This document shows positions 1 to 27,501 of a stretch of DNA of 32,000 nt, piece after piece. The number at the start of each line of letters is the position of its first letter. Position 1 is the stretch's first letter. The notes below the pieces were generated by a model that had not been told where the DNA came from, made no database searches, and saw only the letters and a program-made list of their open reading frames with translations. Source of the stretch: Moraxella nasovis (GTDB lineage: Bacteria; Pseudomonadota; Gammaproteobacteria; Pseudomonadales; Moraxellaceae); contig NZ_CP089976.1 in NCBI RefSeq assembly GCF_022701215.1, positions 1,020,001 through 1,052,000 on the forward strand, in the 5' to 3' direction. The position numbers and the translations under genes were made by a program.

Positions 1-900
1 GGACTGCCACATGCCGAAATTTACGCCTTAAATGACGCTAAAGCACATGGGTATGATATAAAAGGAGCGACTGCGTATGTAACGCTTGAGCCGTGTAGTC
101 ATTATGGGCAAACCCCACCTTGTAGTAAAGCACTGATAGAAAGTGGTATCAATAAGGTGATTATCGCTACTTTTGATCCTAATCCGCAAGTGGCAGGTCG
201 TGGCATATCTATGCTACAAAATGCAGGTATTGACACGCAAATAGGCGTGTGTGAGCGTGAAGCACGCAAGCTTAATGCAGGGTTTTTAAAGGCGATGGCA
301 ACAGGTTTGCCATATGTACGCGTCAAAATTGCCACAAGCCTAGATGGCCGCACAGCGATGGCAAGCGGTGAGTCAAAATGGATTACAGGTGAGATGGCAC
401 GAATAGATGTGCAAAAGCTTCGTGCTAGAAGTGGGGCTATTATTACAGGTTCAAGGACGGTTTTGGCGGACAATCCTGCATTAACGGTTCGTCTTGACAC
501 GCTTGATTTGGTAAATATTTCGCCACCTAAAATTGTGGTGATGGACAGAACGGGTAAATTAAAAAATACCGATAATTATCAGGTATTTAACAATAAAAAC
601 ACCCTACTTTGGCAAGATGATATTAAGAGTTTGCTGCAAACATTAGTAAGTGAGTATCAATGCTATGACGTGCTTGTAGAGGCAGGCAGTACACTTGCCA
701 CGAGTTTTTTGATAGCAGGATTTGTTGATGAGCTGATTGTGTATCAAGCCCCTTGTTTGCTTGGTAAAACAGCAAGGGCGATGTTTGATGGTAAATTTGA
801 TCAGTTAGCCGACAGATTAAGCTTTAATTTAGAGAGCTGTGAGCGATTAGGTGATGATTTAAAAATGACATTTGGGCAAAAACCACAGTGTCGTAAATGA
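1..900 (+). CDS. ribD: Bifunctional riboflavin biosynthesis protein RibD (pyrimidine deaminase / 5-amino-6-(5-phosphoribosylamino)uracil reductase), 5' end outside the window
   Basis: Frame 1 is open from base 1 (GLPHAEIYALNDA...) and continuous with ORF 157..900. It has the deaminase zinc motif HAE...TLEPCSHYGQTPPC, followed by the reductase domain (LPYVRVKIATSLDGRTA...SKWITG). Stop TGA at 898-900. Confidence 0.93.
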   Translation, partial: GLPHAEIYALNDAKAHGYDIKGATAYVTLEPCSHYGQTPPCSKALIESGINKVIIATFDPNPQVAGRGISMLQNAGIDTQIGVCEREARKLNAGFLKAMATGLPYVRVKIATSLDGRTAMASGESKWITGEMARIDVQKLRARSGAIITGSRTVLADNPALTVRLDTLDLVNISPPKIVVMDRTGKLKNTDNYQVFNNKNTLLWQDDIKSLLQTLVSEYQCYDVLVEAGSTLATSFLIAGFVDELIVYQAPCLLGKTARAMFDGKFDQLADRLSFNLESCERLGDDLKMTFGQKPQCRK

Positions 901-1023
901 GTTATCCACAGATTTGTATTGCATAATCAAACACGCCAAAACCGCCATAAAAACATGAATAACATCTGTGGATAACTTAAATTTTAGAACGCATGTTAGA
1001 CGGCTGATGATGATATTAGGTTG

Positions 1024-1050
1024 CTAAGCCTTTTATTATCAAAGGCTTAG
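1024..1050 (+). terminator. Stem-loop downstream of ribD (possible terminator, no T-run)
   Basis: Perfect 10-bp stem ctaagccttt (1024-1033) / aaaggcttag (1041-1050) with a 7-nt loop. There is no immediate U-tract, so intrinsic-terminator function is uncertain. Confidence 0.4.
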
Positions 1051-1071
1051 AATAAACTAAGAATATTTTTA

Positions 1072-1085
1072 GTTTCACGTGAAAC
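1072..1085. repeat. Palindromic 14-mer GTTTCACGTGAAAC, copy 1 (intergenic, inside the DnaA-box region)
   Basis: Exact self-complementary 14-mer read directly at 1072-1085. Confidence 0.9.
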
Positions 1086-1344
1086 AAATTTTGATTGTGG
1101 ATAAGTTTTAAACATTATTGATGGTTACCGTGTGTATAATTAAGTTATCCACAGCATAACTTTTTAATTATCCTGATTGGTGGCTTGATGTGTATGTGAG
1201 AGTGTTAATGGTTGTGAAGACTGTTTGTTTTGACTATCATAAAATATCAATTAACCGAATGATTGATTTTTTAAATTAATAATAATCTTTAATAACAGCA
1301 TTAGTATGTATTAATAATTTAAAAAATTAAACAATGGGTAAATT

Positions 1345-2010
1345 ATGTTTACAGGCATCATAGAAACCACAGGCACGCTCACCGCCATCATCCCCACAGG
1401 TGGAGATGTGCGATTGGTCATATCTGCCCCCAAGCTTGATTTTACTGATGTGAAATTGGGTGATTCTATTGCGTCCAACGGCATCTGCTTGACGGTGGTT
1501 GCCATAGATGGGACAAGTTATGCAGTAGATGTTTCATGTGAAACTTTATCTACCACCGCTTTGGGGGTGTGGCGAGTGGGCGATACGCTCAATCTAGAAA
1601 AGGCAATGCTTCCTACCACTCGTTTTGGCGGTCATATTGTCGCAGGTCATGTGGACGGCGTGGGTAAAATCGCCAAAATCGCCAAGGACGCACGTTCGGT
1701 ATATATAGAAGTGGTGTTGCCGCCAGAGATTATGAAATACACCGCTGACAAAGGCTCTATCACTGTGGACGGCATTTCTCTTACGACCAACCGCATTAAG
1801 CACAACCAAAACATCGTCTGCCTAAATATCATACCGCATACCGCCGATATGACCAACATCGCCAAGCATTGGGCGGTGGGTCGTGCGGTCAATATAGAGG
1901 TGGATTTGGTGGCACGCTATTTGGAGCGACTTGTTTTTGGGAGAAAAGAGTGTGAAGCAAAGACAAGTAACATCACCGAAGAGTTGTTGATAAAAAGCGG
2001 TTTTTTTTAA
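1345..2010 (+). CDS. ribE: Riboflavin synthase (alpha chain)
   Basis: 221 aa. N-terminus MFTGIIETTGTL is typical of riboflavin synthase, with two lumazine-binding repeats (GDSIASNGICLTV ... GSITVDGISLTT). Confidence 0.95.
   Translation: MFTGIIETTGTLTAIIPTGGDVRLVISAPKLDFTDVKLGDSIASNGICLTVVAIDGTSYAVDVSCETLSTTALGVWRVGDTLNLEKAMLPTTRFGGHIVAGHVDGVGKIAKIAKDARSVYIEVVLPPEIMKYTADKGSITVDGISLTTNRIKHNQNIVCLNIIPHTADMTNIAKHWAVGRAVNIEVDLVARYLERLVFGRKECEAKTSNITEELLIKSGFF
1531..1544. repeat. Palindromic-word copy 2, GTTTCATGTGAAAC, inside ribE
   Basis: Read at 1531-1544. It is codon-aligned with ribE: gtt tca tgt gaa act = V S C E T. Confidence 0.9.
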
Positions 2011-2046
2011 TAAATCTTATCATAATTATCATAAAAAGAGATAAAA

Positions 2047-3036
2047 ATGACGACAAAAGACAAATTAAGGGTGGTTTTTGCGGGCACTCCCATCTTCGCC
2101 AAAGTCGCCTTGCAACAACTCATTGACGAACAAGACGCTCTTAATATTGACATCGTGGCGGTCTATACTCAGCCTGACAGAAAGGCAGGACGTGGACAAA
2201 AACTCACCGCTTCGCCTGTCAAGGAGCTTGCGACTGCCCACAATATCCCTGTGGAACAACCGATAAGTTTTAGCCTAAAACACGAGGACGGACAAGTTTC
2301 ACGTGAAACGCTCGCCAGTTATTGTCCTGATGTGATGGTGGTGTGTGCTTATGGCTTGATATTACCGCTTGGCGTGCTAAATACGCCACGCTTGGGCTGT
2401 CTTAATATCCATGCGTCCTTGCTCCCAAGATGGCGTGGAGCTGCCCCCATTCATCGGGCGATTTTGGCAGGTGATGATCAGACGGGTATTACCATCATGC
2501 AGATGAACCAAGGCTTGGATACAGGCGATATGCTCTACATGACGGCGTGTGGGATTGACGACACCGACACCACCCAAAGCCTACATGATAAACTTGCCAA
2601 GCTTGGCGGTGTGGCGATATCTTGTGTGTTCAAGGATTTGACAAATTTTCAAAAAAACGCCGTCAAACAAGATGACATTCAAGCTAATTATGCCGATAAA
2701 ATCAGCACCGAAGAAGGGCAGATCAACTGGCAAAATACAGCCAGTCAAATCAACCGACAAATCCGTGCCTTGAACGCCCATACCTTTATCCATGATGAGC
2801 GTGTCAAAATCTTATCTGCCAAACCCATCAAATCCGACCAAACCACACAAAAACCTGCTGGCACGATCGTCAGTGTGGGCAAAAATGCGGTACTGGTGGC
2901 GTGTGGGGCAGATGAACATGGCGTGCAACACCTGATTAACATCACCGCCATGCAATGGGCAGGTGGCAAACCTTTGGACGCACTGCAAATCGCTAATTCC
3001 AACAAAATCGCTGATGGGGATATATTTGGTGCTTGA
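2047..3036 (+). CDS. fmt: Methionyl-tRNA formyltransferase
   Basis: 329 aa. Motifs LRVVFAGTPIFA, DVMVVCAYGLILP and CLNIHASLLPRWRGAAPI are characteristic of Fmt. It is followed by rsmB, the conserved fmt-rsmB pair. Confidence 0.95.
   Translation: MTTKDKLRVVFAGTPIFAKVALQQLIDEQDALNIDIVAVYTQPDRKAGRGQKLTASPVKELATAHNIPVEQPISFSLKHEDGQVSRETLASYCPDVMVVCAYGLILPLGVLNTPRLGCLNIHASLLPRWRGAAPIHRAILAGDDQTGITIMQMNQGLDTGDMLYMTACGIDDTDTTQSLHDKLAKLGGVAISCVFKDLTNFQKNAVKQDDIQANYADKISTEEGQINWQNTASQINRQIRALNAHTFIHDERVKILSAKPIKSDQTTQKPAGTIVSVGKNAVLVACGADEHGVQHLINITAMQWAGGKPLDALQIANSNKIADGDIFGA
2296..2309. repeat. Palindromic-word copy 3, GTTTCACGTGAAAC, inside fmt
   Basis: Read at 2296-2309. It is codon-aligned with fmt: gtt tca cgt gaa acg = V S R E T, the same phase as the ribE copy. 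Confidence 0.9.
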
Positions 3037-4363
3037 TATTTTACACACACAAAAATCTGCCCGTGCTAAGGTCATTCACGTCATTGAGCGGATTTTGGCA
3101 GGGCAGTCGTTATCTGTTTTGCTTGATGAGTTGCTTGCAGTCGTGGGCGATGATGATAGGGGCTTTGCCCATGAGCTGACGGTTGGCACGCTCCGCCAAT
3201 GGTGGGCGTTGTCTCGTATTGGTGAGAGTCTGATTGAAAGACAGCCTACCGATCGGGGCGTGAGTGTGGCGTTAAATGTTGGCTTGTATCAGCTACTGTA
3301 CATGAGTACGCCTGATTATGCCGCCATCAATGCCACACTAGATGCCCTAAAAGAGCTGAATAAAGGCTATGGCGTGGGTTTGGTTAATGCGATATTGCGA
3401 AAAGTTGCCAACAATCCTGCCAAATTTGCCAAAAAAGTACAAAAAAACCACAGTCTACCCAACCATCTTGCCAAAATCCTAAAAAGCGACTGGCAAACCC
3501 ATTATGAGATATTAAGCCAAAATTTACGTCAGCCTGCACCGATATTTTTGCGTGTTAATACCAAGTTTGGTACGCCAGATGATTATGCCACAAGACTCAA
3601 TCACGCCAATATCGCCTGTGATGTGGTGCCTGTGGGCGTGCGTGATGAGCGGTGTATTGTATTAAAAGATAATATAAAAATCAAAGACTTGCCTGATTTT
3701 TGTGAAGGTTATGTGAGTGTACAAGACCGCCACGCTCAAATTGCAGGGCATTTGTTGGCATCTTTGAGATTGCCTAAGCACCCAAACATTCTGGACGCTT
3801 GTACCGCCCCCGGTGGGAAATTGGCTCAGATTTTGGAGCTGTCCCACAGCGGTGCATTTGATATCAAACACATGACCGCCCTTGATAGTGATGACAGACG
3901 ACTTGACCGTGTGCATAAGAATTTGGCAAGACTGCATTTGGGTGATAAGGCGGACGTGATTTGTGCGGATGCGACAACTTATCAGGCGGACATACCCTTT
4001 GATGTGATTGTACTTGACGCACCTTGCACCGCCACAGGGGTGATACGAAGACACCCTGACATCGCCCTTTTGCGGACAGAAAATGACATCATTGAGACGG
4101 TCAAATTGCAAGCACAGATTTTGGCGAATTTGTGGCAAAGTTTGGCGGTGGGGGGCTATTTGCTTTATATCACTTGTTCACTCATCAAGGCAGAAAATAC
4201 TGCACAAATAAGCAATTTTTTGACAAACACACCGAACGCTCGTGCGGTGGATATTGAACTGACCCTACCTAATCACATCAAGCAGTCTGTGGGTTATCAA
4301 TGCTTGCCATTGGATAAATATGATGGCGATGGCTTTTATTATGCCTTATTGCAAAAAATATAA
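3029..4363 (+). CDS. rsmB: 16S rRNA (cytosine967-C5)-methyltransferase RsmB
   Basis: NusB-like N-terminal domain plus SAM-MTase motifs ILDACTAPGGK, VLDAPCTATGVIRRHPD and LLYITCS, with C-terminal DGFYYALLQK. The ORF-track start at 2963 lies inside fmt. A likelier start is GTG 3029 (or TTG 3026), preceded by GGGGA and overlapping the fmt stop. Start uncertain by a few codons. Confidence 0.9.
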   Translation: MLDILHTQKSARAKVIHVIERILAGQSLSVLLDELLAVVGDDDRGFAHELTVGTLRQWWALSRIGESLIERQPTDRGVSVALNVGLYQLLYMSTPDYAAINATLDALKELNKGYGVGLVNAILRKVANNPAKFAKKVQKNHSLPNHLAKILKSDWQTHYEILSQNLRQPAPIFLRVNTKFGTPDDYATRLNHANIACDVVPVGVRDERCIVLKDNIKIKDLPDFCEGYVSVQDRHAQIAGHLLASLRLPKHPNILDACTAPGGKLAQILELSHSGAFDIKHMTALDSDDRRLDRVHKNLARLHLGDKADVICADATTYQADIPFDVIVLDAPCTATGVIRRHPDIALLRTENDIIETVKLQAQILANLWQSLAVGGYLLYITCSLIKAENTAQISNFLTNTPNARAVDIELTLPNHIKQSVGYQCLPLDKYDGDGFYYALLQKI

Positions 4364-4394
4364 AATTGTAAAAATACAAAGCATTTAAAATGTT

Positions 4395-4425
4395 AATAAA
4401 CCTTAGTTAGTCGCTAAGGTTTATT
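4395..4425. terminator. Bidirectional stem-loop between convergent rsmB and the MscS-family gene
   Basis: Perfect 12-bp stem aataaaccttag (4395-4406) / ctaaggtttatt (4414-4425) with a 7-nt loop. Both flanks are AT-rich and it sits between two convergent stop codons (4363 and 4498). Confidence 0.65.
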
Positions 4426-4497
4426 AAAATACGCTGTGAAATATTACCAAAGAGTAGTTATGGGTTAAGTATATCCAAAAATCCTTTTTTAGTATCG

Positions 4498-6552
4498 TTA
4501 TTTAGGGTGGTTAGATGGTGCATAAGGGTCTGTAAAAGGATTGTTATCTTTGAGTAATACTTTATCAGCGGGTAAAAATTTGGCGTGCTCTTGAGCAAGA
4601 TACTCAAGCATGCTTTCACGCACTTCACAAGATAACTGCCATGCATTGTTTGGTGTGCTAGATGCTACAACCCCTCGTAAAGTAATAAAATGCTCGGACA
4701 CGCCTGAGACCACAAAGGTGGGTTCATTGTCAGTGTCGCTTAATTTATGAGCCTTGGTGATTTTGATAAATTGCTCGCCGATGGCTTTTACATCTGCCCC
4801 ATAATCCACATATAGCCATACAGGATAAAGCTGGGCAGGGTCGGTGTGTGACCAGTTGCAGATAATATCGGTAACAAAATGCCGCATAGGTACAATCAAA
4901 CGACGCTCATCCCACGTCATCAGCACTGCATAGGTGTAACGCAAATCTTCCACCGTACACCACTCATCTTTAAGGGTTACCGTATCGCCAATCCGCACAG
5001 GCTGAGTGATCGCTACCTGCACGCCTGCCATGATATTACCTAAAATCGGCTGTGCAGCAATACCAATAATCGCCCCTGCAATCCCTGCTGACGTTAAAAG
5101 GGTTGTGCCAAGTCCTTTTAAGTCGGTAAACATACTTAAACCTGCGATGAAGCCTACAATAATCATCACAAAAATAAATAATCGGCGAAACAAGGATAAA
5201 TAAGTAAGTCGTCTACGTGTTTTATCAGTCTCTTCGTCATCTAAATTGTCAATGCCAAAATCCCGATAGCGATTGGCGATAAAATTGATGGTACGAATGC
5301 CAAGCCATAAAGTAAACAGCACCAACGCTACCCAAATAACCGGACGAGTAGATGAAGCAATTGGGTCAATGGGAAGTCTGCCTGATACTTGTAAGTACAC
5401 CGCCAAAAAACTCATGGTTAAGATAAATGGTACGGTGATTTTATTTGCCAAATCGGTCAAAAAATTAGACTTAGCAAAAGTATGTACTGAGCCGTGTGTG
5501 TTTTTGCTTTTGTTTTTAATTGTGGTTAAAACTGTCGTAATGACACGGCTGATGAACCATGACACCCCAAGCGATAAGGCAAAAAACAGCAACAGAGCAA
5601 TCAGCTCCCACACCTTAATCCCAAAAAGCTTACCCTTTAGCCAGTCGGCAAAAAATCGCTCAAATTCGGCAGGTTTGTGCTGGTCATAAAGCAGGTTAAT
5701 ATTTTCACTACTCGCCCCAGATAACACCCAAATCGGTGCGTCATCGCCTACTTTAACACGCTCAATATAAAGCGGTATATGACGGTCTTTGTAAGCAATA
5801 GTGCCGATTTTGATACTGCGTCTTGGCACGCCTTTTAATGGGTTTTGACTGCCGACAGTTGGTTCAATCAGTCCATCGGGTCGATCAGGTAAATCATCAA
5901 AAATATAAAGTCCGTGCTGGGTGAGTAGATAGTCTAGTTTTACCGCAAGATTAGGGGCGATTAAGGATTGCTCTTGGGCTGAATAAGCATTAAGATTTAG
6001 GGCGTAGCTTGCCAAAAAAGGGTTATCGGTTGCGATGGCGGTGCTAAAAAACTCAAGCCATGCAAGTGGTGTCGATAGATTGGGCGGTGTGTCAAGCTGG
6101 GGCAGTCCTGCATTAAAAGTCTTTAAGGGTGTGTAATATTCGTTATATTCGGTATAAGCAGCTTGGTTAAAGGGGATTTGAGTTTGGTAGGTGGGCGGGT
6201 TGTCTTGAATATTATCAGAGCCATTTAGATGGCTGGCGTTACTACGGGTTATCTTTTGGGCTTGTTTGGTGACATATTCACCAAAGTTATCAGGTTTATT
6301 AGGATTGTCTTTTGCCTGACGCTTGGCAAGCTCGTAATCGCTTGGTAATTCTTGATTGGCAAAATTATCTTTACTTGTCTGCTGCAGGGTTTGGGCGGAT
6401 ATTTGAACAGATGGTTGTGTGTGATTTAGGTGGTTTGTGTTGGCATCTTGGGCAAATGCACCAACGCAAAAGCTAACATAAGTAGTAAATAGCGTCACAA
6501 ATATGGGCTTTTGACGGTCTTTAATGAGTTTGGACAGATTTTTGTAAGTCAT
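4498..6552 (-). CDS. Mechanosensitive ion channel family protein (MscS-like) with a large N-terminal periplasmic domain
   Basis: 684 aa. Signal peptide (…CVGAFA/QD), a soluble region of about 300 aa, several TM helices, then the MscS pore/beta-domain signature (GIAAQPILGNIMAGVQVAITQPVRIGDTVTL...). Confidence 0.85.
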   Translation of the reverse strand: MTYKNLSKLIKDRQKPIFVTLFTTYVSFCVGAFAQDANTNHLNHTQPSVQISAQTLQQTSKDNFANQELPSDYELAKRQAKDNPNKPDNFGEYVTKQAQKITRSNASHLNGSDNIQDNPPTYQTQIPFNQAAYTEYNEYYTPLKTFNAGLPQLDTPPNLSTPLAWLEFFSTAIATDNPFLASYALNLNAYSAQEQSLIAPNLAVKLDYLLTQHGLYIFDDLPDRPDGLIEPTVGSQNPLKGVPRRSIKIGTIAYKDRHIPLYIERVKVGDDAPIWVLSGASSENINLLYDQHKPAEFERFFADWLKGKLFGIKVWELIALLLFFALSLGVSWFISRVITTVLTTIKNKSKNTHGSVHTFAKSNFLTDLANKITVPFILTMSFLAVYLQVSGRLPIDPIASSTRPVIWVALVLFTLWLGIRTINFIANRYRDFGIDNLDDEETDKTRRRLTYLSLFRRLFIFVMIIVGFIAGLSMFTDLKGLGTTLLTSAGIAGAIIGIAAQPILGNIMAGVQVAITQPVRIGDTVTLKDEWCTVEDLRYTYAVLMTWDERRLIVPMRHFVTDIICNWSHTDPAQLYPVWLYVDYGADVKAIGEQFIKITKAHKLSDTDNEPTFVVSGVSEHFITLRGVVASSTPNNAWQLSCEVRESMLEYLAQEHAKFLPADKVLLKDNNPFTDPYAPSNHPK

Positions 6553-6913
6553 GTCTTTTATCTTAATTGTGAGATGTTGTTAGTGTAACCATCATCATTT
6601 GGTTGCTTTTTTATTGGTTGCGTGCTGATTTTTATAGCTTAATGCTTAAAAGCTATGTGGATTATGTCAGTTTTAATTCACACACGGTTAGGTTATTTTA
6701 CCTTAAAAGATACGTTAAAACCATTAAATGCTGATACCTGCTGACATAGTAAATAGTGGTTTTTTGTCAATTTTAAAAAAAAATTTGTTATCATTGTTAT
6801 GAATTTTTATTATGATTTATTAATGTTGGTATGGATTTTTATGCCTTAAAAAAAACCTAATAGACCGTATTGGTGGCTATAAATCATTTATTTGATTTTG
6901 ACAAATTTGCAAG

Positions 6914-6978
6914 TATCAATTTCTTTACAAAGGTTATAATTTATTGATAAATCACATCTTTTTGTAAAGAAATTGATA
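6914..6978. repeat. Perfect 18-bp inverted repeat with a 29-bp spacer, 42 bp upstream of the YkvI-like pseudogene start
   Basis: tatcaatttctttacaaa (6914-6931) is the exact reverse complement of tttgtaaagaaattgata (6961-6978). The spacer contains TATAAT (6935-6940). Confidence 0.9.
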
Positions 6979-7019
6979 TCTTATGGCTATTTTATGACTA
7001 TTTTTATAAGGTATCAGAT

Positions 7020-8252
7020 ATGAATTTTAAGAAAATTATGCTCATTGCTTTATCCTATGTGGGCATTATCGTTGGTGCAGGCGTGGCATCAGGGCAAGAT
7101 ATTTTGCAGTATTTTATGAGTTTTGGTAATTGGGGTATGGTTGGGGTTGTGCTTTTGGGTCTGCTTAGTGTCATTTTTGGTGGTATTACGCTTTACCTTT
7201 GGCTCGTATTATCAAGCCCAAGATCATAGTGAGGTATTGGATAATATCGCAAGCTCATTACTTGGTAAGCTACTTGATTGGTCGCTGATTTTTACCTGTT
7301 TTGTGATTGGATTTATTATGATTTCAGGAGCAGGAGTAAGTCTTAACCAAGGCTTTGGGATTGATCGCCCGATTGGGTCGCTGCTTTGTGCTTTACTGAT
7401 TATCTTTGTGAGTATGATGGATTTAGAAAAAGTATCGGCAGCCATTGGTGTGCTTACCCCTGTCGTGCTTGTGATGATTGTGGGCTTGGCAGGTCATACG
7501 CTGGCTACAACTGATGTAGATTGGCACATATTCATGCTATCGCCACAACGAGTGTTAATCCTGCTACGCCAAGCGTCTGGGTATCTGTTATAAATTATTT
7601 TGCCTTATCTTTAATCGCTGCAGTGTCGATGGCATTCGTGCTTGGTGGCTCAGCAGTACATATCAAAAATGCCACTTGGGGTGGGGTGATTGGCGGGTTT
7701 TTGATAGGACTGACTATTGCATTGAACGCTCTTGTGATGTTTATTTAAGATTGCTGCGGTTAAGGATGCTGATATCCCAACACAGGTACTGTTTGCTAAA
7801 ATTCATCCGCTACTAGGGTCGGTGATGTCGGTGGTAATTTTTGGTATGATTTTTAATACAGCGATCAGCTTGTATTATGCTCTTGCCAAGCGATTCTCAA
7901 AAATACAAAAACAATTTAATCTGGTAAATATTGCCCTTGTGGCGGTAGGGTTTGTGCTGAGCTTTGCAGGCTTTAAGTAGCTTGTTTTTGTGATGTATCC
8001 AATCGTGGGTTATGTGGGGGTTTTGCTGCTCTGTTTGTGCTTGGTTTTGCATGGTTTAAGGAGCGTAAACAAGTGGATAAAGAACAAAAAAAAATTCGTG
8101 CTGTACTATTTCGCTTGACGCATCGCAAGCTTGCTGATGATCAAAAATTTACCAAAAATCATCAAAACAAGCTTAATGAATGGGCAAAAAAATCCAACAT
8201 TGATAATGCAGTGATTAAAAAAGCGTGCATGATATGGTTAAAAGCCGCTTAG
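7020..8252 (+). pseudogene. YkvI-family membrane protein, disrupted by multiple frameshifts and an in-frame stop
   Basis: The N-terminus MNFKKIMLIALSYVGIIVGAGVASGQDILQYF is the YkvI-type signature. The coding signal hops frames: 7020-7229 (frame 0), about 7190-7593 (frame 1), 7521-7748 (frame 0), 7750-7977 (frame 1, ending at TAG 7978-7980), then 8037-8252 (frame 0). Hydrophobic TM-like translation continues across each break. Confidence 0.8.
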
Positions 8253-8276
8253 ATTAATCTAGTCTCTTGAAAAAAT

Positions 8277-8303
8277 CCGTCCATAAAAGTGGGTGGTTTT
8301 TTT
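8277..8303 (+). terminator. Rho-independent terminator-like hairpin after the pseudogene
   Basis: Stem ccgtcca / tgggtgg (7 bp including 2 G-U pairs), 6-nt loop, then T7 (8297-8303). An A-run lies upstream. Confidence 0.55.
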
Positions 8304-8511
8304 ATGCAGTCAATCAAATGTTTTAGCGGTTGTCTTTGTCAGGTAGTGGCTATGATAAAAGAAAAAATATCATCTAAATATGGTCTAAAAATGCTTTTAA
8401 AAACGATAAAAAAGTAGAAATGTGCAAAAAGATCATAAAAACTGTGCCAATTTATCAAGATTTTGTTATGATAATCGATTAGCCTAGATTAAACGAAAAT
8501 AAGGAAAAACC

Positions 8512-9918
8512 ATGTACTATATCAGTACTCGTGGCAATACCCCAAAAATGCAATTTAGTGATGTTCTACTGATGGGGCTTGCCCCAGATGGTGGGCTTAT
8601 GTTGCCAGAAACCTATCCACATATTGACCGCGTAACCCTTGATAAGTGGCGAGCGTTGAGCTATACCGATTTGGCATTTGAAATCATGAGTTTATTTGCC
8701 ACCGATATTGACAAGGCAGATTTAAAGGCGTTGATTGATAAAACTTACACCAAAATCGCCTTTGGCACAGATGAGATTACCCCTGTTCGTACACTTAAAG
8801 ACGGCATTAAAATCCTAGAGTTGTCAAATGGGCCGACGCTTGCCTTTAAAGATATTGCCATGCAGTTTTTGGGTAACGCCTTTGAATATGTACTCAAACA
8901 AAAGGGCGAGCGTCTTACCATTATCGGTGCAACCAGTGGTGATACAGGCTCTGCTGCCGAATACGCCCTGCGTGGCAAGGATAATATTGAAGTATTTATG
9001 ATGTCGCCCCATGGCAAAATGAGTGAATTTCAACGGGCTCAAATGTACAGCTTGACCGATAAAAATATCCATAATATCGCCATTGATGGTATGTTTGACG
9101 ATTGCCAAGATATTGTTAAAGCTTTACAAAACGACAAAGATTTTAAGGCTAAATATAGACTTGGCACGGTAAACTCCATCAACTGGGGGCGGATTTTGGC
9201 TCAAATCGTCTATTATTTTAAAGGTTATTTTGCCAGCACTACAGATAACGACCAAAAGGTTAGTTTTTGTGTGCCGTCTGGCAATTTTGGTAATATTTGT
9301 GCAGGACATATCGCTCGTGAAATGGGTTTACCAATCCATCGTTTGATTGTCGCCACCAACGAAAATGATGTGCTAAATGACTTTTTTAACCAAGGTAGAT
9401 ATACGCCACGCACGCCAAGCGAAACGTTTATCACGTCAAGCCCATCTATGGATATCTCAAAAGCGTCTAACTTTGAGCGATTTATTTACTTACTAAGTGA
9501 TAAGAATGGCGAAACCATCAGCCAGCTTTGGATGGATAGTAAAAAAGGGTTTGATTTATCAGACAAACTAACTGACATCAACGGCAAATACGGCTTTGTT
9601 TCAGGTAAATCTACCCACGCTGACCGCATCGCCACCATCAAAGCGGTGTATGAAAGCGATAAAGATTTGATAGACCCACACACCGCAGATGGTGTAAAAG
9701 TGGCACGTTCTGTGCGTGAAGATAATGAAATCATCGTCTGTGCTGAAACTGCCTTACCTGCCAAATTTAGCGAAACGATGGCAGAAGCCTTAGGTGAGAT
9801 TGACATACCACGCCCTACTCACACAAAAGATATTGAAACTTTGCCACAGTTCGTTACTGTGCTGGATAATAAAGCAGAATTGGTTAGAGCAGAGATTGAG
9901 AAGGTTGTGAAAATTTAA
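8512..9918 (+). CDS. thrC: Threonine synthase
   Basis: 468 aa. N-terminus MYYISTRGN...FSDVLLMGLAPDGGLMLPE, PLP-lysine context LSNGPTLAFKDIAMQ, and GATSGDTGSAA. Good SD (TAAGGAAAAACC ATG). Confidence 0.95.
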   Translation: MYYISTRGNTPKMQFSDVLLMGLAPDGGLMLPETYPHIDRVTLDKWRALSYTDLAFEIMSLFATDIDKADLKALIDKTYTKIAFGTDEITPVRTLKDGIKILELSNGPTLAFKDIAMQFLGNAFEYVLKQKGERLTIIGATSGDTGSAAEYALRGKDNIEVFMMSPHGKMSEFQRAQMYSLTDKNIHNIAIDGMFDDCQDIVKALQNDKDFKAKYRLGTVNSINWGRILAQIVYYFKGYFASTTDNDQKVSFCVPSGNFGNICAGHIAREMGLPIHRLIVATNENDVLNDFFNQGRYTPRTPSETFITSSPSMDISKASNFERFIYLLSDKNGETISQLWMDSKKGFDLSDKLTDINGKYGFVSGKSTHADRIATIKAVYESDKDLIDPHTADGVKVARSVREDNEIIVCAETALPAKFSETMAEALGEIDIPRPTHTKDIETLPQFVTVLDNKAELVRAEIEKVVKI

Positions 9919-9921
9919 CAT

Positions 9922-9935
9922 GTTTCATGTGAAAC
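9922..9935. repeat. Palindromic-word copy 4, GTTTCATGTGAAAC, 4 nt after the thrC stop
   Basis: Read at 9922-9935. The extended inverted repeat atgtttca-tg-tgaaacat spans 9920-9937. Confidence 0.9.
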
Positions 9936-9964
9936 ATAATAAATAATCATGTTGCTAGCCATAA

Positions 9965-19264: not shown

Positions 19265-20197
19265 TCAGCCTCTAGGGTGGTGCTGTTTATGTAGGTTTTG
19301 CAGGCGTGTGGTGGCGACGTGTGTATAGATCTGTGTGGTGGATAGGTTGCTGTGGCCTAATAATAACTGCACACTGCGTAAGTCTGCTCCGTGATTAATA
19401 AGATGAGTAGCAAAGGCATGACGCAGTGTATGTGGCGAGATGTCACTCGTGATGTTGGCGATGCGAGCGTATTTTTTAATCATATGCCAAAAGTTATGCC
19501 GTGTCATATAGCCACCTTGTGCGGTTAAAAAAACCGCTTGGCAGTCGTTTCTACCATCTGGCAGCAGTGTTCGTCTGTGTAGCATGTAGTTTTCTATGGC
19601 AGTGATGGCAAATTCGCCAAGTGGCACAAGTCTGGTTTTATTGCCCTTACCTGTGATTTGTAGCCAGCCTGCATTTAAATTAAGCTGCTCTAGGGAGATA
19701 TTTATCAGCTCTGATACACGCAGACCACAGGCATACAGCACTTCTAACATCGCCTTATCACGCAGCCCAAGCACTGTGCTGATGTCAGGTGCATCCAACA
19801 GACAAGTGACATCGTCTTCAGATAGGGTTTTTGGTAAGGATGAGCCAGTTTTTGGGGCTTTTATGTGCTCGCAGGGGTTATCGTCTCGTCCGCCATTGCC
19901 AATTTGCCATAAGAAAAACTGCCTTAAGCTTGATAAAATTCTTGCTTGAGTACGAACAGACTTGCCAAGCTGCATCATGGATTTTAGGCAGTGCTGTACT
20001 TGTGCCTCACCCCACGTTGTTAATGGTGTGCTTGAAGTATTAAGGCATAAGCGTAAATCACGCATATAAGCGTTACGAGTATGGACGCTAAGCCCACGAG
20101 CAAGCATGGCAGTGCGAAATTCTGTCAGATAGATGGGGTCGTCATCTGCGTGTGCGATGGTGGGCTGACGGGGTGTCTTGGCACGGGTCTGGCTCAT
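19265..20197 (-). CDS. xerD: Site-specific tyrosine recombinase XerD
   Basis: 310 aa. The C-terminal catalytic region HTLRHAFATHLINHGADLRSVQLLLGHSNLSTTQIYTHVATTRLQNLHKQHHPR matches the XerD pattern more closely than XerC. Confidence 0.9.
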   Translation of the reverse strand: MSQTRAKTPRQPTIAHADDDPIYLTEFRTAMLARGLSVHTRNAYMRDLRLCLNTSSTPLTTWGEAQVQHCLKSMMQLGKSVRTQARILSSLRQFFLWQIGNGGRDDNPCEHIKAPKTGSSLPKTLSEDDVTCLLDAPDISTVLGLRDKAMLEVLYACGLRVSELINISLEQLNLNAGWLQITGKGNKTRLVPLGEFAITAIENYMLHRRTLLPDGRNDCQAVFLTAQGGYMTRHNFWHMIKKYARIANITSDISPHTLRHAFATHLINHGADLRSVQLLLGHSNLSTTQIYTHVATTRLQNLHKQHHPRG

Positions 20198-20436
20198 GAT
20201 TTTTTGGCGATTAGATAACGATAACTGCCATCGTCACATGTTTGCTCTAAGATTAGTGTATGCCCCAAATGCCGACAAAAATTGGGAATATCTCGAGTGG
20301 TGGCAGGATCTGTGGCAAGAATTTCTATAACGTCCCCTGCTACTGCCTGACGAATGGTCTTATGAAGTAGCATGACAGGCTCTGGGCAGATAAGTCCTGT
20401 GGTGTCAAGATGGTGGTTGATGGTGTGATTAGTCAT
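20194..20436 (-). CDS. tusA: Sulfurtransferase TusA-family protein
   Basis: 80 aa. LDTTGLICPEPVMLL carries the CPxP active-site motif of TusA/SirA. ATGA overlap with the xerD start. Confidence 0.85.
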   Translation of the reverse strand: MTNHTINHHLDTTGLICPEPVMLLHKTIRQAVAGDVIEILATDPATTRDIPNFCRHLGHTLILEQTCDDGSYRYLIAKKS

Positions 20437-20887
20437 GATGGTCTGTTTGTTTTGATGAATGGGTTAAAAATGTCAAAAATCGCTTAAAATTAACACGAAA
20501 CACAAATGGCATACCAAACCATGCAATCATTGTCAAAAATAAGCTCATAAAAAATACAATACTACTGCCTTGTGCGATAAATACAGCAAGCGTAAAACCA
20601 AATAATCCTATGCCTACCCCTAGTATTAGGCGTAGGATTGACTTTTGGATAATATGATAACGCCCAAGTAAAAACACATGATATAAGCTGATGGGAATGC
20701 TTAGACCAACGAGTACATAAGGTAAATAATGAAATGCCAAATACACACCCATGCTGTCTTTAAAGGCGTTAAGACTGGCAAGCGTTCCTAAAATAAAAAA
20801 ACTACCAATCGCCATAATACCAAGGAAAATACTGATATTAGCAAAGCGGATCGCATCTGTAATATGACGGATTAAAAGATGATTCAT
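20429..20887 (-). CDS. Hypothetical integral membrane protein (about 4 TM)
   Basis: 152-aa ORF that is strongly hydrophobic. Its start overlaps the ruvX stop (ATGA) and its stop overlaps the tusA start by 8 nt. AT-rich. No recognisable family. Confidence 0.6.
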   Translation of the reverse strand: MNHLLIRHITDAIRFANISIFLGIMAIGSFFILGTLASLNAFKDSMGVYLAFHYLPYVLVGLSIPISLYHVFLLGRYHIIQKSILRLILGVGIGLFGFTLAVFIAQGSSIVFFMSLFLTMIAWFGMPFVFRVNFKRFLTFLTHSSKQTDHHD

Positions 20888-24686: not shown

Positions 24687-24700
24687 GTTCCATGTGAAAC
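24687..24700. repeat. Palindromic-word copy 5 (one substitution), GTTCCATGTGAAAC, 35 nt after the rlmB stop
   Basis: Read at 24687-24700. The extended form atgttccatgtgaaacat spans 24685-24702. Confidence 0.8.
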
Positions 24701-24861
24701 ATATTAGATTTACCTAAATAACTATCGCCACCTAAAAAGTAGTTGTTTAGCATCTTGCTTATGGGTTTACCGCAGATTTAAAAAGTTATGTGATGCATGA
24801 CATCAAAGCACCGCTATCATGGGTGAATCGCTTTTATGGTAACTATAATAGGGTCTTATTT

Positions 24862-26505: not shown

Positions 26506-26545
26506 GACTTTATTACAATACATTCGACTTTATTACAATACATTC
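26506..26545 (+). repeat. Perfect 20-bp tandem duplication (2 copies) in the cysK upstream region
   Basis: gactttattacaatacattc at 26506-26525 is repeated exactly at 26526-26545. The pair is flanked by TTCATCAA on both sides and ends 27 nt before the cysK ATG. Confidence 0.95.
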
Positions 26546-26571: not shown

Positions 26572-27501
26572 ATGAACATTGCAAACAACATCACCGATTT
26601 AATCGGCAACACCCCTTTGGTCAAGCTACACACGCTCACCAAAGGTGCTAAGGCGGACGTACTTGCCAAGCTTGAGTATTTTAATCCTGCAAGCTCGGTT
26701 AAAGACCGCATTGCTTTATCCATGATAAATGAGGCAGAAAAATCAGGCAAGTTAAAGGCAGGCGATACCATTGTGGAGGCGACATCTGGCAACACAGGTA
26801 TCGGGCTTGCGATGGTAGCAGCAGCTCGTGGTTATCGCCTTGTTATTACTATGCCTGAGAGTATGAGTCTTGAGCGTCGTACGTTATTAAAAGCTTATGG
26901 AGCAGAGCTCGTATTAACACCTGCGTCAGAGGGTATGGGTGGGGCGATTGCCAAAGCTGATGAATTGGCAGCACAAGATGGCTATTTTATGCCACGTCAA
27001 TTTGACAACCTTGCCAATCCCAAAATCCACCGTGAAACTACCGCCCTTGAGATTTGGGAAGATACAGATGGCAAGGTGGATATTGTTGTGGCAGGTATTG
27101 GCACAGGCGGTACGATTACAGGCGTGGGTGAGGTATTAAAAGATAAAAACCCTGACATTCAAATCATCGCCGTTGAGCCAGCCGACTCACCTGTCTTTAG
27201 TGGCGGCGAAAAAGGTGCTCATAAATTACAAGGCTTAGCCCCAGGCTTTGTGCCAAGTATCTTAAACACCAAAATTTATGATGAAGTGATCACTGTTAGC
27301 ACCGAAGACGCTTTTGCCACTTCACGGCGTATGGCAAGTGAGGAAGGGATTTTGGTGGGTATCTCAGCAGGGGCGGCAGTTTGGTCAGCCTTACAAGTGG
27401 CAAGCCGAGAAGAAAACGCTGGTAAAACCATCGTGGTTATTATCCCATCATCAGGCGAGCGGTATTTGTCTACGGCACTGTTTGCGGATTTGGCACAGTG
27501 A
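26572..27501 (+). CDS. cysK: Cysteine synthase A (O-acetylserine sulfhydrylase)
   Basis: 309 aa. [13 protein letters not shown] lysine context [27 protein letters not shown] and [16 protein letters not shown] lies upstream. Confidence 0.95.

Follow-up and report, generated by a model that had tools for sequence, protein, structure and literature searches.

Secondary clusters of DnaA boxes are already known from several systems, namely datA, the DnaA-reactivating sequences (DARS), the Bacillus subtilis clusters, and the oriC2 regions of Pseudomonas and Halomonadaceae. Here, we describe a further cluster, located in the spacer between ribD and ribE of a 32-kb stretch of Moraxella nasovis DNA (contig NZ_CP089976.1, positions 1,020,001 to 1,052,000 of the forward strand; the whole stretch is called the window below), and we compare it with its counterparts in other Moraxellaceae. 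We refer to it as cluster 2 and to the DnaA boxes of the dnaA-rpmH spacer, the probable replication origin (oriC) of the family, as cluster 1.

In Escherichia coli, datA combines four boxes with one IHF-binding site (IBS), and their spacing is critical (PMC10380432). Read-through transcription also modulates datA (PMC10950094). Cluster 2 resembles datA as a predicted non-origin element of ~190–250 bp that holds four boxes around a single central IHF site (a candidate site here), lies in the origin-proximal part of the chromosome, and stands downstream of a transcribed unit from which read-through is possible. The spacing between IHF site and boxes matters for datA by experiment, and a phasing of ~10.5 bp suggests the same for cluster 2. 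No sequence homology or synteny connects the two loci, the boxes being their only sequence similarity. E. coli datA is found between glyVXY and queG at 94.7 min, whereas the Moraxellaceae cluster is only ~6 kb from oriC, has its boxes in two inverted pairs, and in most lineages of the family carries parS in the place of the IHF consensus. Moreover, datA is known to promote DnaA-ATP hydrolysis, which would be a possible activity of the Moraxellaceae cluster. The first-pass annotation of the window had considered a datA-like locus. The comparison holds in the sense of a candidate non-origin DnaA regulatory cluster, with four strong boxes, a central IHF or parS site, and phased spacings, but it does not extend to datA synteny.

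The B. subtilis clusters likewise consist of intergenic consensus boxes outside of, and close to, oriC (Okumura et al. 2012, PMC3245932); they hold back initiation and have genetic interactions with Spo0J (ParB) and Soj (PMC3245932). Unlike the Moraxellaceae cluster, they are scattered over several loci, contain many boxes in tandem, and are themselves known transcriptional targets. Moraxellaceae have one locus, with a fixed and phased four-box geometry and a candidate parS that physically abuts a box. DnaA boxes with parS ~8 kb from the origin are also described for Caulobacter crescentus (Mera et al. 2014). This species is an alphaproteobacterium with another DnaA-box consensus, and, in contrast to it, boxes without a parS are retained in some species of Moraxella. 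DARS1 and DARS2 have a core of three adjacent boxes (I–III) that is missing from the conserved Moraxellaceae layout.

Within the order Pseudomonadales, a parallel is oriCII (oriC2) of Pseudomonas aeruginosa, located ~5 kb from the dnaA-proximal origin. Each of the two is a second cluster ~5–8 kb from the rpmH-dnaA origin, among co-oriented genes. The Pseudomonas cluster is said to lie upstream of gidA, a report credited to Jiang in 2006. It is placed at mnmE-gidA and the Moraxellaceae cluster at ribD-ribE; neither gidA (mnmG) nor parAB was found in the window, where ribD and ribE flank cluster 2. Pseudomonas oriC2 contains a full module of DNA-unwinding element (DUE), DnaA-trios, R1 box, and IHF site and replicates autonomously, whereas the Moraxellaceae cluster lacks the module. 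DnaA binding at oriCII regulates the downstream operon (Wawrzyniak 2026, PMC13438810).

New here are the ribD-ribE position, the fixed and phased scaffold of two inverted pairs, and the abutment of putative parS sites and boxes with an apparent exchange of parS and IHF. A literature search on second DnaA-box clusters in Moraxellaceae returned no earlier description of the ribD-ribE locus, and a dual-origin survey of Pseudomonadaceae and Halomonadaceae contains no mention of Moraxellaceae, ribD, or nrdR.

The ribD-ribE spacer of the window contains four DnaA boxes

The sequence TTATCCACA occurs exactly four times in the window, each time in the ribD-ribE spacer (Table 1), and our scan of both strands of the 32 kb found no further perfect copy, confirming the positions and strands given in the first-pass annotation. 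Shuffled 32-kb sequences contained a mean of 0.44 such boxes, and none of 100 shuffles reached four. A Poisson estimate for at least four boxes in 253 bp gave ~6e-12, or ~8e-10 when corrected for window positions. Chance is rejected as the source of the four-box cluster. To judge from their sequences and strands, the boxes are of the consensus, high-affinity type and form two pairs, in which boxes 1 and 2 converge and boxes 3 and 4 diverge.

The four-box layout is conserved in Moraxellaceae

Conservation of the cluster in related genomes had been proposed as a check. In 14 Moraxellaceae genomes or contigs, including the window, ribD and ribE flank boxes in the layout +, −, −, +; the RibE proteins of this set are 60–85% identical. 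The other carriers are M. nasibovis, M. bovis, and bovis-like metagenome contigs; M. caviae, M. porci, M. canis, and a Moraxella metagenome-assembled genome (MAG); Psychrobacter piechaudii, P. lutiphocae, and a Psychrobacter-like contig; and M. osloensis, Faucicola mancuniensis, and a Faucicola-like contig (RibE 60%, RibD 54–57% identical). Only six of the Moraxellaceae contigs with the layout were contributed by the metagenome scan. The RibE of the window shares 84–85% identity with those of M. nasibovis and M. bovis and 70–73% with those of Psychrobacter. By this distribution, the four-box geometry predates the divergence of Moraxella, Faucicola, and Psychrobacter.

A MAFFT alignment of the spacers was uninformative, as the boxes alone are conserved, and we used a box-anchored comparison instead. 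The consensus was matched at 351 of 360 box positions (97.5%; ten genomes), and the extended consensus AAGTTATCCACAR had an A at −2 in 35/36 and an R at +9 in 36/36 cases. Inter-box segments of equal length showed an identity of 0.32–0.37, compared with 0.29 expected from composition. By this measure, the DNA between the boxes is essentially randomized, and selection acts on the boxes.

In the relatives, box 1 and box 2 are 52–56 or 64–65 bp apart, box 2 and box 3 are separated by 102, 112–113, 122–123, or 133–134 bp (129 bp in the window and one other contig), and the spacing from box 3 to box 4 is 47–49 or 58–60 bp. In the cross-genome comparison, the four boxes together span 226–247 bp. The spacings differ between genomes in steps of ~10.5 bp. 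All three proved to be helically phased, with a mean resultant length of 0.77–0.80 and a peak period of 10–11 bp that was matched in 0 of 50,000 random draws, a statistic based on few independent indel events. Phasing of this kind is indicative of a face-specific nucleoprotein complex, not of sites that act independently. Across the relatives, 27 to 323 nt separate box 4 from the ribE ATG; because this gap is only 27–30 nt in M. canis, M. porci, and M. nasibovis, the AT-rich tract that precedes ribE in the window is not conserved.

The surroundings of the locus vary in some relatives. On the metagenome scaffold L089 (10001, 19836–20657), from a Moraxella-like genome, tellurite-resistance (ter) genes, not ribD, precede ribE-fmt-rsmB-thrC, and an inverted ribD is found ~9 kb downstream of these genes. 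This gene order indicates a rearrangement breakpoint within the ribD-ribE spacer, with the four-box cluster gone. L088, a Moraxella species, has further tandem box pairs at the 3′ end of nrdR and before mnmE (8751–8771, 9929–9949, 6828–6844); F. mancuniensis has extra perfect DnaA boxes in the nrdR-ribD spacer; and L170 has additional perfect boxes at 7950–8050, together with an IS605/TnpB insertion between mnmE and nrdR. These extra boxes suggest that the first 7 kb clockwise of oriC is box-enriched in Moraxellaceae.

The origin module is found in the dnaA-rpmH spacer

Gene order was derived from Pfam domains and called genes in every relative with enough flanking sequence, and the relatives served as stand-ins for the DNA upstream of the window. 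Their order is dnaN and dnaA on the minus strand; cluster 1; rpmH, rnpA, yidD, yidC, mnmE, nrdR, and ribD on the plus strand; cluster 2; and ribE, fmt, rsmB, and thrC. In eight relatives, cluster 2 is 6.3–8.1 kb from the dnaA-rpmH spacer. The window begins inside ribD, and its dnaA-rpmH spacer therefore falls outside the window; we infer that it lies ~5.5–6.5 kb upstream of the window start. In the complete genome of M. nasibovis, the locus makes up the last 17.5 kb of the record, which ends within the dnaA-rpmH spacer, consistent with coordinate 1 having been set at dnaA.

Weigel 2025 (bioRxiv 10.1101/2025.08.05.668638) describes an origin pattern in which some two helical turns separate an AT-rich DUE from a box of the R1 type, with trios between the two and, in the gammaproteobacterial form, the C of an IHF site ~21 bp beyond R1. 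Based on this text and on the work cited there on DnaA-trios and the basal unwinding system (BUS), we scored each box for three features: a 30-mer with an A+T fraction of 0.9 or more, a run of three or more TAR trinucleotides, and an ATCA of the IHF type whose C is at +22. In nine genomes, cluster 1 consists of two or three minus-strand boxes and then two or three plus-strand boxes. The last plus-strand box has a minus-strand box 74–80 bp away and is followed by ~13 bp, a YTA/TAR run, and ~50 bp at 90–100% A+T; trinucleotide runs such as ccccTACTACTACTATTA and cccTTATTATTATTATT correspond to the DnaA-trio pattern. One positionally equivalent box of cluster 1 combines all three features in 6/9 genomes and two of the three in the other 3, and the R1 box has ATCA with the C at +22 in 7/9. 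The spacers with the module are located at 2840–3234 in L001, 3113–3716 in L002, 1900–2457 in L083, 2400–3046 in L085, 3093–3683 in L087, and 100–690 in L081. The dnaA-rpmH spacer is, by this sequence pattern, the probable oriC of Moraxellaceae.

The same scoring of cluster 2 gave a different picture. None of 41 boxes in 10 genomes combined the three features, and ATCA with the C at +22 was found at no box of this set. Box 3 of M. canis and that of M. nasibovis showed two of the three. The boxes of the window showed none, with a best 30-mer A+T of 0.70–0.83 and a TAR run of 1. What the spacer has in common with an origin is an array of DnaA boxes, four perfect and one relaxed within 253 bp.

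GC skew, proposed earlier as a check for an origin, gave no sign of a switch in the window. The skew is +0.17 over positions 1–1000, and the cumulative skew climbs from position 1 without a minimum at 901–1344. In the relatives, the plus-strand GC skew at codon position 3 is negative in dnaA and dnaN and changes its sign only at dnaA. It is positive in yidC and mnmE of three of four relatives (near zero in M. bovis) and in ribD throughout (+0.06 to +0.33; +0.33 in the window), and it stays positive even in ribBA, which is encoded on the minus strand.

Because the module is found only in cluster 1 and the skew does not switch here, we reject the ribD-ribE spacer as oriC, a reading that the first-pass annotation had put forward. 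Its suggestion that the AT-rich tract before ribE could act as an unwinding element fares no better, as the tract is ~100 bp from box 4 and is not conserved in the relatives. We also considered a bipartite origin formed together with the dnaA-rpmH cluster. This is unlikely, because the two clusters are 6–8 kb and seven genes apart, a distance that far exceeds the ~1.5 kb between the parts of known split origins. Origin predictors that rely on box density could take cluster 2 for oriC in Moraxellaceae.

Candidate parS sites and IHF consensus matches alternate between the box pairs

The center of cluster 2 in the window is occupied by a candidate ParB site that closely matches the canonical parS consensus TGTTNCACGTGAAACA (PMC7022226). 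Its 14-mer core GTTTCACGTGAAAC at 1072–1085 is perfect, with 0 expected by chance. Origin-proximal loci of 13–20 kb in Moraxellaceae contain 3–9 parS copies each, found in mnmE, the spacer, ribE, fmt, and rsmB, and cluster 2 of the relatives sits inside this group. In five non-Moraxellaceae loci, we found no match to the 12-mer parS pattern and a single match, in L012, to a looser 10-mer. The candidate parS at 1071–1086 and the perfect core in fmt (2296–2309) belong, judging from these matches, to an origin-proximal parS cluster that surrounds the DnaA boxes.

Five parS cores were noted in the window (1072–1085, 1531–1544, 2296–2309, 9922–9935, and 24688–24701), two of them perfect, two with one mismatch, and one with two. 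Three are at most 1.3 kb from the DnaA boxes, two are in coding sequence (ribE and fmt), and one follows the stop codon of thrC.

A parS match is present near the boxes in 10 of the 14 spacers, among them those of the window, M. bovis, Psychrobacter, Faucicola, and M. osloensis. Relative to box 2, it is placed 0 nt to the left or 2–5 nt to the right, and sites also lie left of box 3, at a distance of 38–41 or 10 nt. In four Moraxella species, the spacer lacks parS and has a single IHF consensus match 48–49 nt from box 2; the background of such matches is one per 1.2–3.4 kb. Both kinds of site are carried by the window and by one MAG (L001). The distance from box 2 to the IHF match is 48, 49, 60 (L001), or 70 nt (window), and that from the match to box 3 is 54, 59, 64, or 74 nt. 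An architectural DNA-binding protein seems to be wanted between the box pairs, with ParB and IHF apparently alternating there.

A non-origin DnaA assembly site is the favored reading

We tentatively favor the possibility that DnaA assembles on the ribD-ribE spacer, close to oriC but without origin function, and that this site serves to buffer or inactivate the initiator right after initiation. The cluster directly follows the ribD stop codon, without an intrinsic terminator between them. In the mechanism that we propose, DnaA would occupy all four boxes, and a central architectural protein, through bending by IHF or bridging by ParB, would put the two pairs on the same face, giving a looped higher-order complex. 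The site would be replicated within seconds of initiation, so that its doubling could at once draw DnaA off oriC. ATP hydrolysis by DnaA may also be stimulated, as it is at datA. Such a site would help to block re-initiation in a family outside the dam/seqA clade of Gammaproteobacteria and would tie initiator availability to ParB loading at the adjoining centromere; any influence on ribE-fmt-rsmB transcription would be incidental.

Several observations weigh against an assembly site. The IHF site is a consensus match only, present in 6 of the 14 spacers (absent from 8) and inverted in the window, and the window's distance of 129 bp between boxes 2 and 3 is half a turn off the main ladder. In L088, the spacer has shrunk to 84 bp with two tandem boxes, 52 nt upstream of ribE, and in L089 ribE stands apart from ribD without boxes upstream of it. 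The existence of these two lineages indicates that the exact four-box architecture is dispensable. Four boxes are also a small sink in relation to the genome-wide number of DnaA sites, and a role in gene regulation or segregation would account for the same conservation. The readings of cluster 2 are not mutually exclusive.

Control of ribE-fmt-rsmB by DnaA is compatible with an assembly site, although we consider it somewhat unlikely. DnaA would act at a promoter bracketed by boxes 3 and 4, or the bound boxes would be roadblocks to read-through from nrdR-ribD. The mere 27–30 nt between box 4 and the start codon of ribE in M. canis, M. porci, and M. nasibovis fit this role, as do the perfect TATAAT at 1135–1140, upstream of box 4 in the window, the lack of an intrinsic terminator after ribD in five genomes, and the two boxes that L088 retains before ribE despite its short spacer; the oriCII boxes of P. 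aeruginosa, which regulate the gidAB-parAB promoter, provide a precedent (PMC13438810). However, no conserved sigma-70 consensus promoter was found on the plus strand in five genomes, between boxes 3 and 4 or elsewhere, with counts no higher than expected from shuffles. Box 4 stands anywhere from 27 to 323 nt before the ATG, L089 has a ribE without any boxes, and the convergent pair near ribD, the phasing over ~240 bp, and the adjacency of parS exceed a promoter's needs. Under such control, the genes for a cofactor and for translation initiation would be expressed in step with the replication cycle. We regard as unlikely a composite initiator-centromere platform, in which DnaA boxes abut parS (0–5 bp) and DnaA and ParB would compete or cooperate on ~250 bp. 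Here, IHF would have taken over the central architectural role from ParB in one Moraxella subclade, with the window as an intermediate that has both, and replication initiation would be coupled to origin segregation. A centromere-coupled role, in which DnaA next to parS modulates ParB loading, spreading, or segregation, or ParB controls DnaA occupancy, appears distinctly unlikely. Four Moraxella species keep the four boxes without any parS in the spacer, and parS copies also occur far from any box. These facts have to be set against the parS sites near boxes 2 and 3 in 10 of 14 spacers (including that of the window, 10 nt from box 3), the position of the cluster midway in the parS group of mnmE, spacer, ribE, fmt, and rsmB, and the example of Caulobacter, where, according to PMC6399470, which relays Mera 2014, DnaA binds boxes at parS and is needed for segregation.

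A second, auxiliary, or decayed origin comparable with P. aeruginosa oriC2/oriCII, which might fire or let a plasmid replicate autonomously, is very improbable, even though the topology is shared, with a box cluster a few kilobases from rpmH-dnaA and co-oriented genes transcribed away from oriC1. AT-rich DNA follows box 4 immediately in M. bovis, M. caviae, and Psychrobacter, and two of the three origin features are present at box 3 in both M. canis and M. nasibovis. Yet 0 of 41 boxes unite DUE, trio run, and IHF at +22, as a box of cluster 1 does in 6/9 genomes. In addition, the AT tract of the window is ~100 bp away from box 4 and is missing from genomes whose ribE begins 27–30 nt after that box, and the skew is already positive in ribD and switches only at dnaA, the cumulative skew of the window rising from position 1. 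We give even less credence to a DARS-like site that would regenerate DnaA-ATP by ADP release, which had also been raised in the first-pass annotation. Strong non-origin boxes in inverted orientations and a candidate IHF site recall DARS2, and the window alone has a close inverted pair (1131–1139, minus strand; 1145–1153, plus strand; 5 bp apart). However, in the DARS core three boxes adjoin each other and boxes I and II stand head to head (PMC10380432); the conserved layout has no such core, its boxes are at least 38 bp apart (38–56 bp edge to edge), and the close pair of the window occurs in no relative.

The favored DnaA assembly site would bear on a wider question. To our knowledge, beyond E. 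coli and B. subtilis, the control of re-initiation and the link between initiation and segregation without Dam/SeqA are little known. The locus is a compact (~250 bp) and readily testable candidate for re-initiation control without Dam/SeqA, and natural variants are on offer, parS-centered, IHF-centered, shrunken, or lost. The Moraxellaceae include the veterinary pathogen M. bovis, one of the relatives compared, and the human pathogen M. catarrhalis.

Other features of the spacer and the window

The features of the spacer and its flanks are listed in Table 1. The translation of window positions 1–897 matches ribD of L094 in a tblastn search, and the ribD orthologue of L002 has the Pfam domains RibD_C and deaminase.

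Table 1. Positions of genes, DnaA boxes, and other sites in and around the ribD-ribE spacer of the window
Feature	Position	Strand	Remarks
3′ part of ribD	1–900	+	Open reading frame (ORF) open at window start; stop codon TGA at 898–900
DnaA box 1	902–910	+	TTATCCACA, extended form AGTTATCCACAG; first box in 14 genomes
DnaA box 2	967–975	−	Converges with box 1; start-to-start distance 65 bp
Palindrome, 10-bp stem, 7-nt loop	1024–1050		Encloses IHF consensus match; fold −13.8 kcal/mol, z = −2.6
IHF consensus match TATCAAAGGCTTA	1037–1049	+	Sole WATCARNNNNTTR match in spacer; window background 1 per 3.2 kb
Candidate parS (ParB site) AGTTTCACGTGAAACA	1071–1086		Matches TGTTNCACGTGAAACA at 15/16 positions; box 3 is 10 nt to the right
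DnaA box 3	1096–1104	−	TTATCCACA; kept in relatives
Relaxed fifth DnaA box TTATACACA	1131–1139	−	Fits TTWTNCACA; 5 bp from box 4
DnaA box 4	1145–1153	+	Diverges from box 3; start-to-start distance 49 bp
AT-rich ribE leader	1249–1344	+	83% A+T; not conserved in relatives
ribE (riboflavin synthase)	1345–2010	+	ORF; orthologue has Pfam Lum_binding
parS-like GTTTCATGTGAAAC	1531–1544		Inside ribE; parS at same codon position (+187) in nearly all relatives
Perfect parS core	2296–2309		Inside fmt; fmt parS also in relatives

The description in the first-pass annotation proved accurate. Box 1 stands right behind the ribD stop codon, at a distance of one base. The perfect inverted repeat around boxes 1 and 2 is real, with arms of 14 nt, not 13, that are 100% complementary (AGTTATCCACAGAT at 900–913 and ATCTGTGGATAACT at 964–977). 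The AT-rich tract reported at 1255–1344 was recovered as described, with 83% A+T and TTAATAA at 1276, 1289, and 1311. The relaxed fifth box, the parS palindrome, and the IHF consensus within the 1024–1050 palindrome had, however, been overlooked.

The relaxed box TTATACACA is specific to the window; it is absent from the nine other cluster-2 spacers scanned, and no relative has the tight inverted pair. The perfect TATAAT named above overlaps this box. The palindrome at 1024–1050 is no intrinsic terminator, because a T-run is absent after it, and none was found after ribD in the five genomes scanned. A search of window positions 1–9000 against Rfam at permissive thresholds returned no riboswitch or known RNA in the spacer, and its only potential small proteins are unconserved ORFs of 22–29 aa. 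The ribE leader contains an imperfect 36-nt inverted repeat (1249–1284 and 1309–1344, 83% complementary) that is not conserved where the relatives have short leaders. Its right arm covers the ribosome-binding site up to the ATG and might occlude translation initiation.

Farther downstream, the plus strand at 7020–7980 has four short adjacent or overlapping ORFs (69, 156, 75, and 52 aa) that resemble membrane proteins and probably represent one frameshifted pseudogene. The surrounding region (6000–8000) combines a low GC content (0.34–0.41) with a GC skew of +0.23 to +0.28 and a negative AT skew. Finally, a perfect 20-bp direct repeat, GACTTTATTACAATACATTC, occurs twice at 26506–26545, just upstream of a PALP-family (cysK-like) ORF at 26572.

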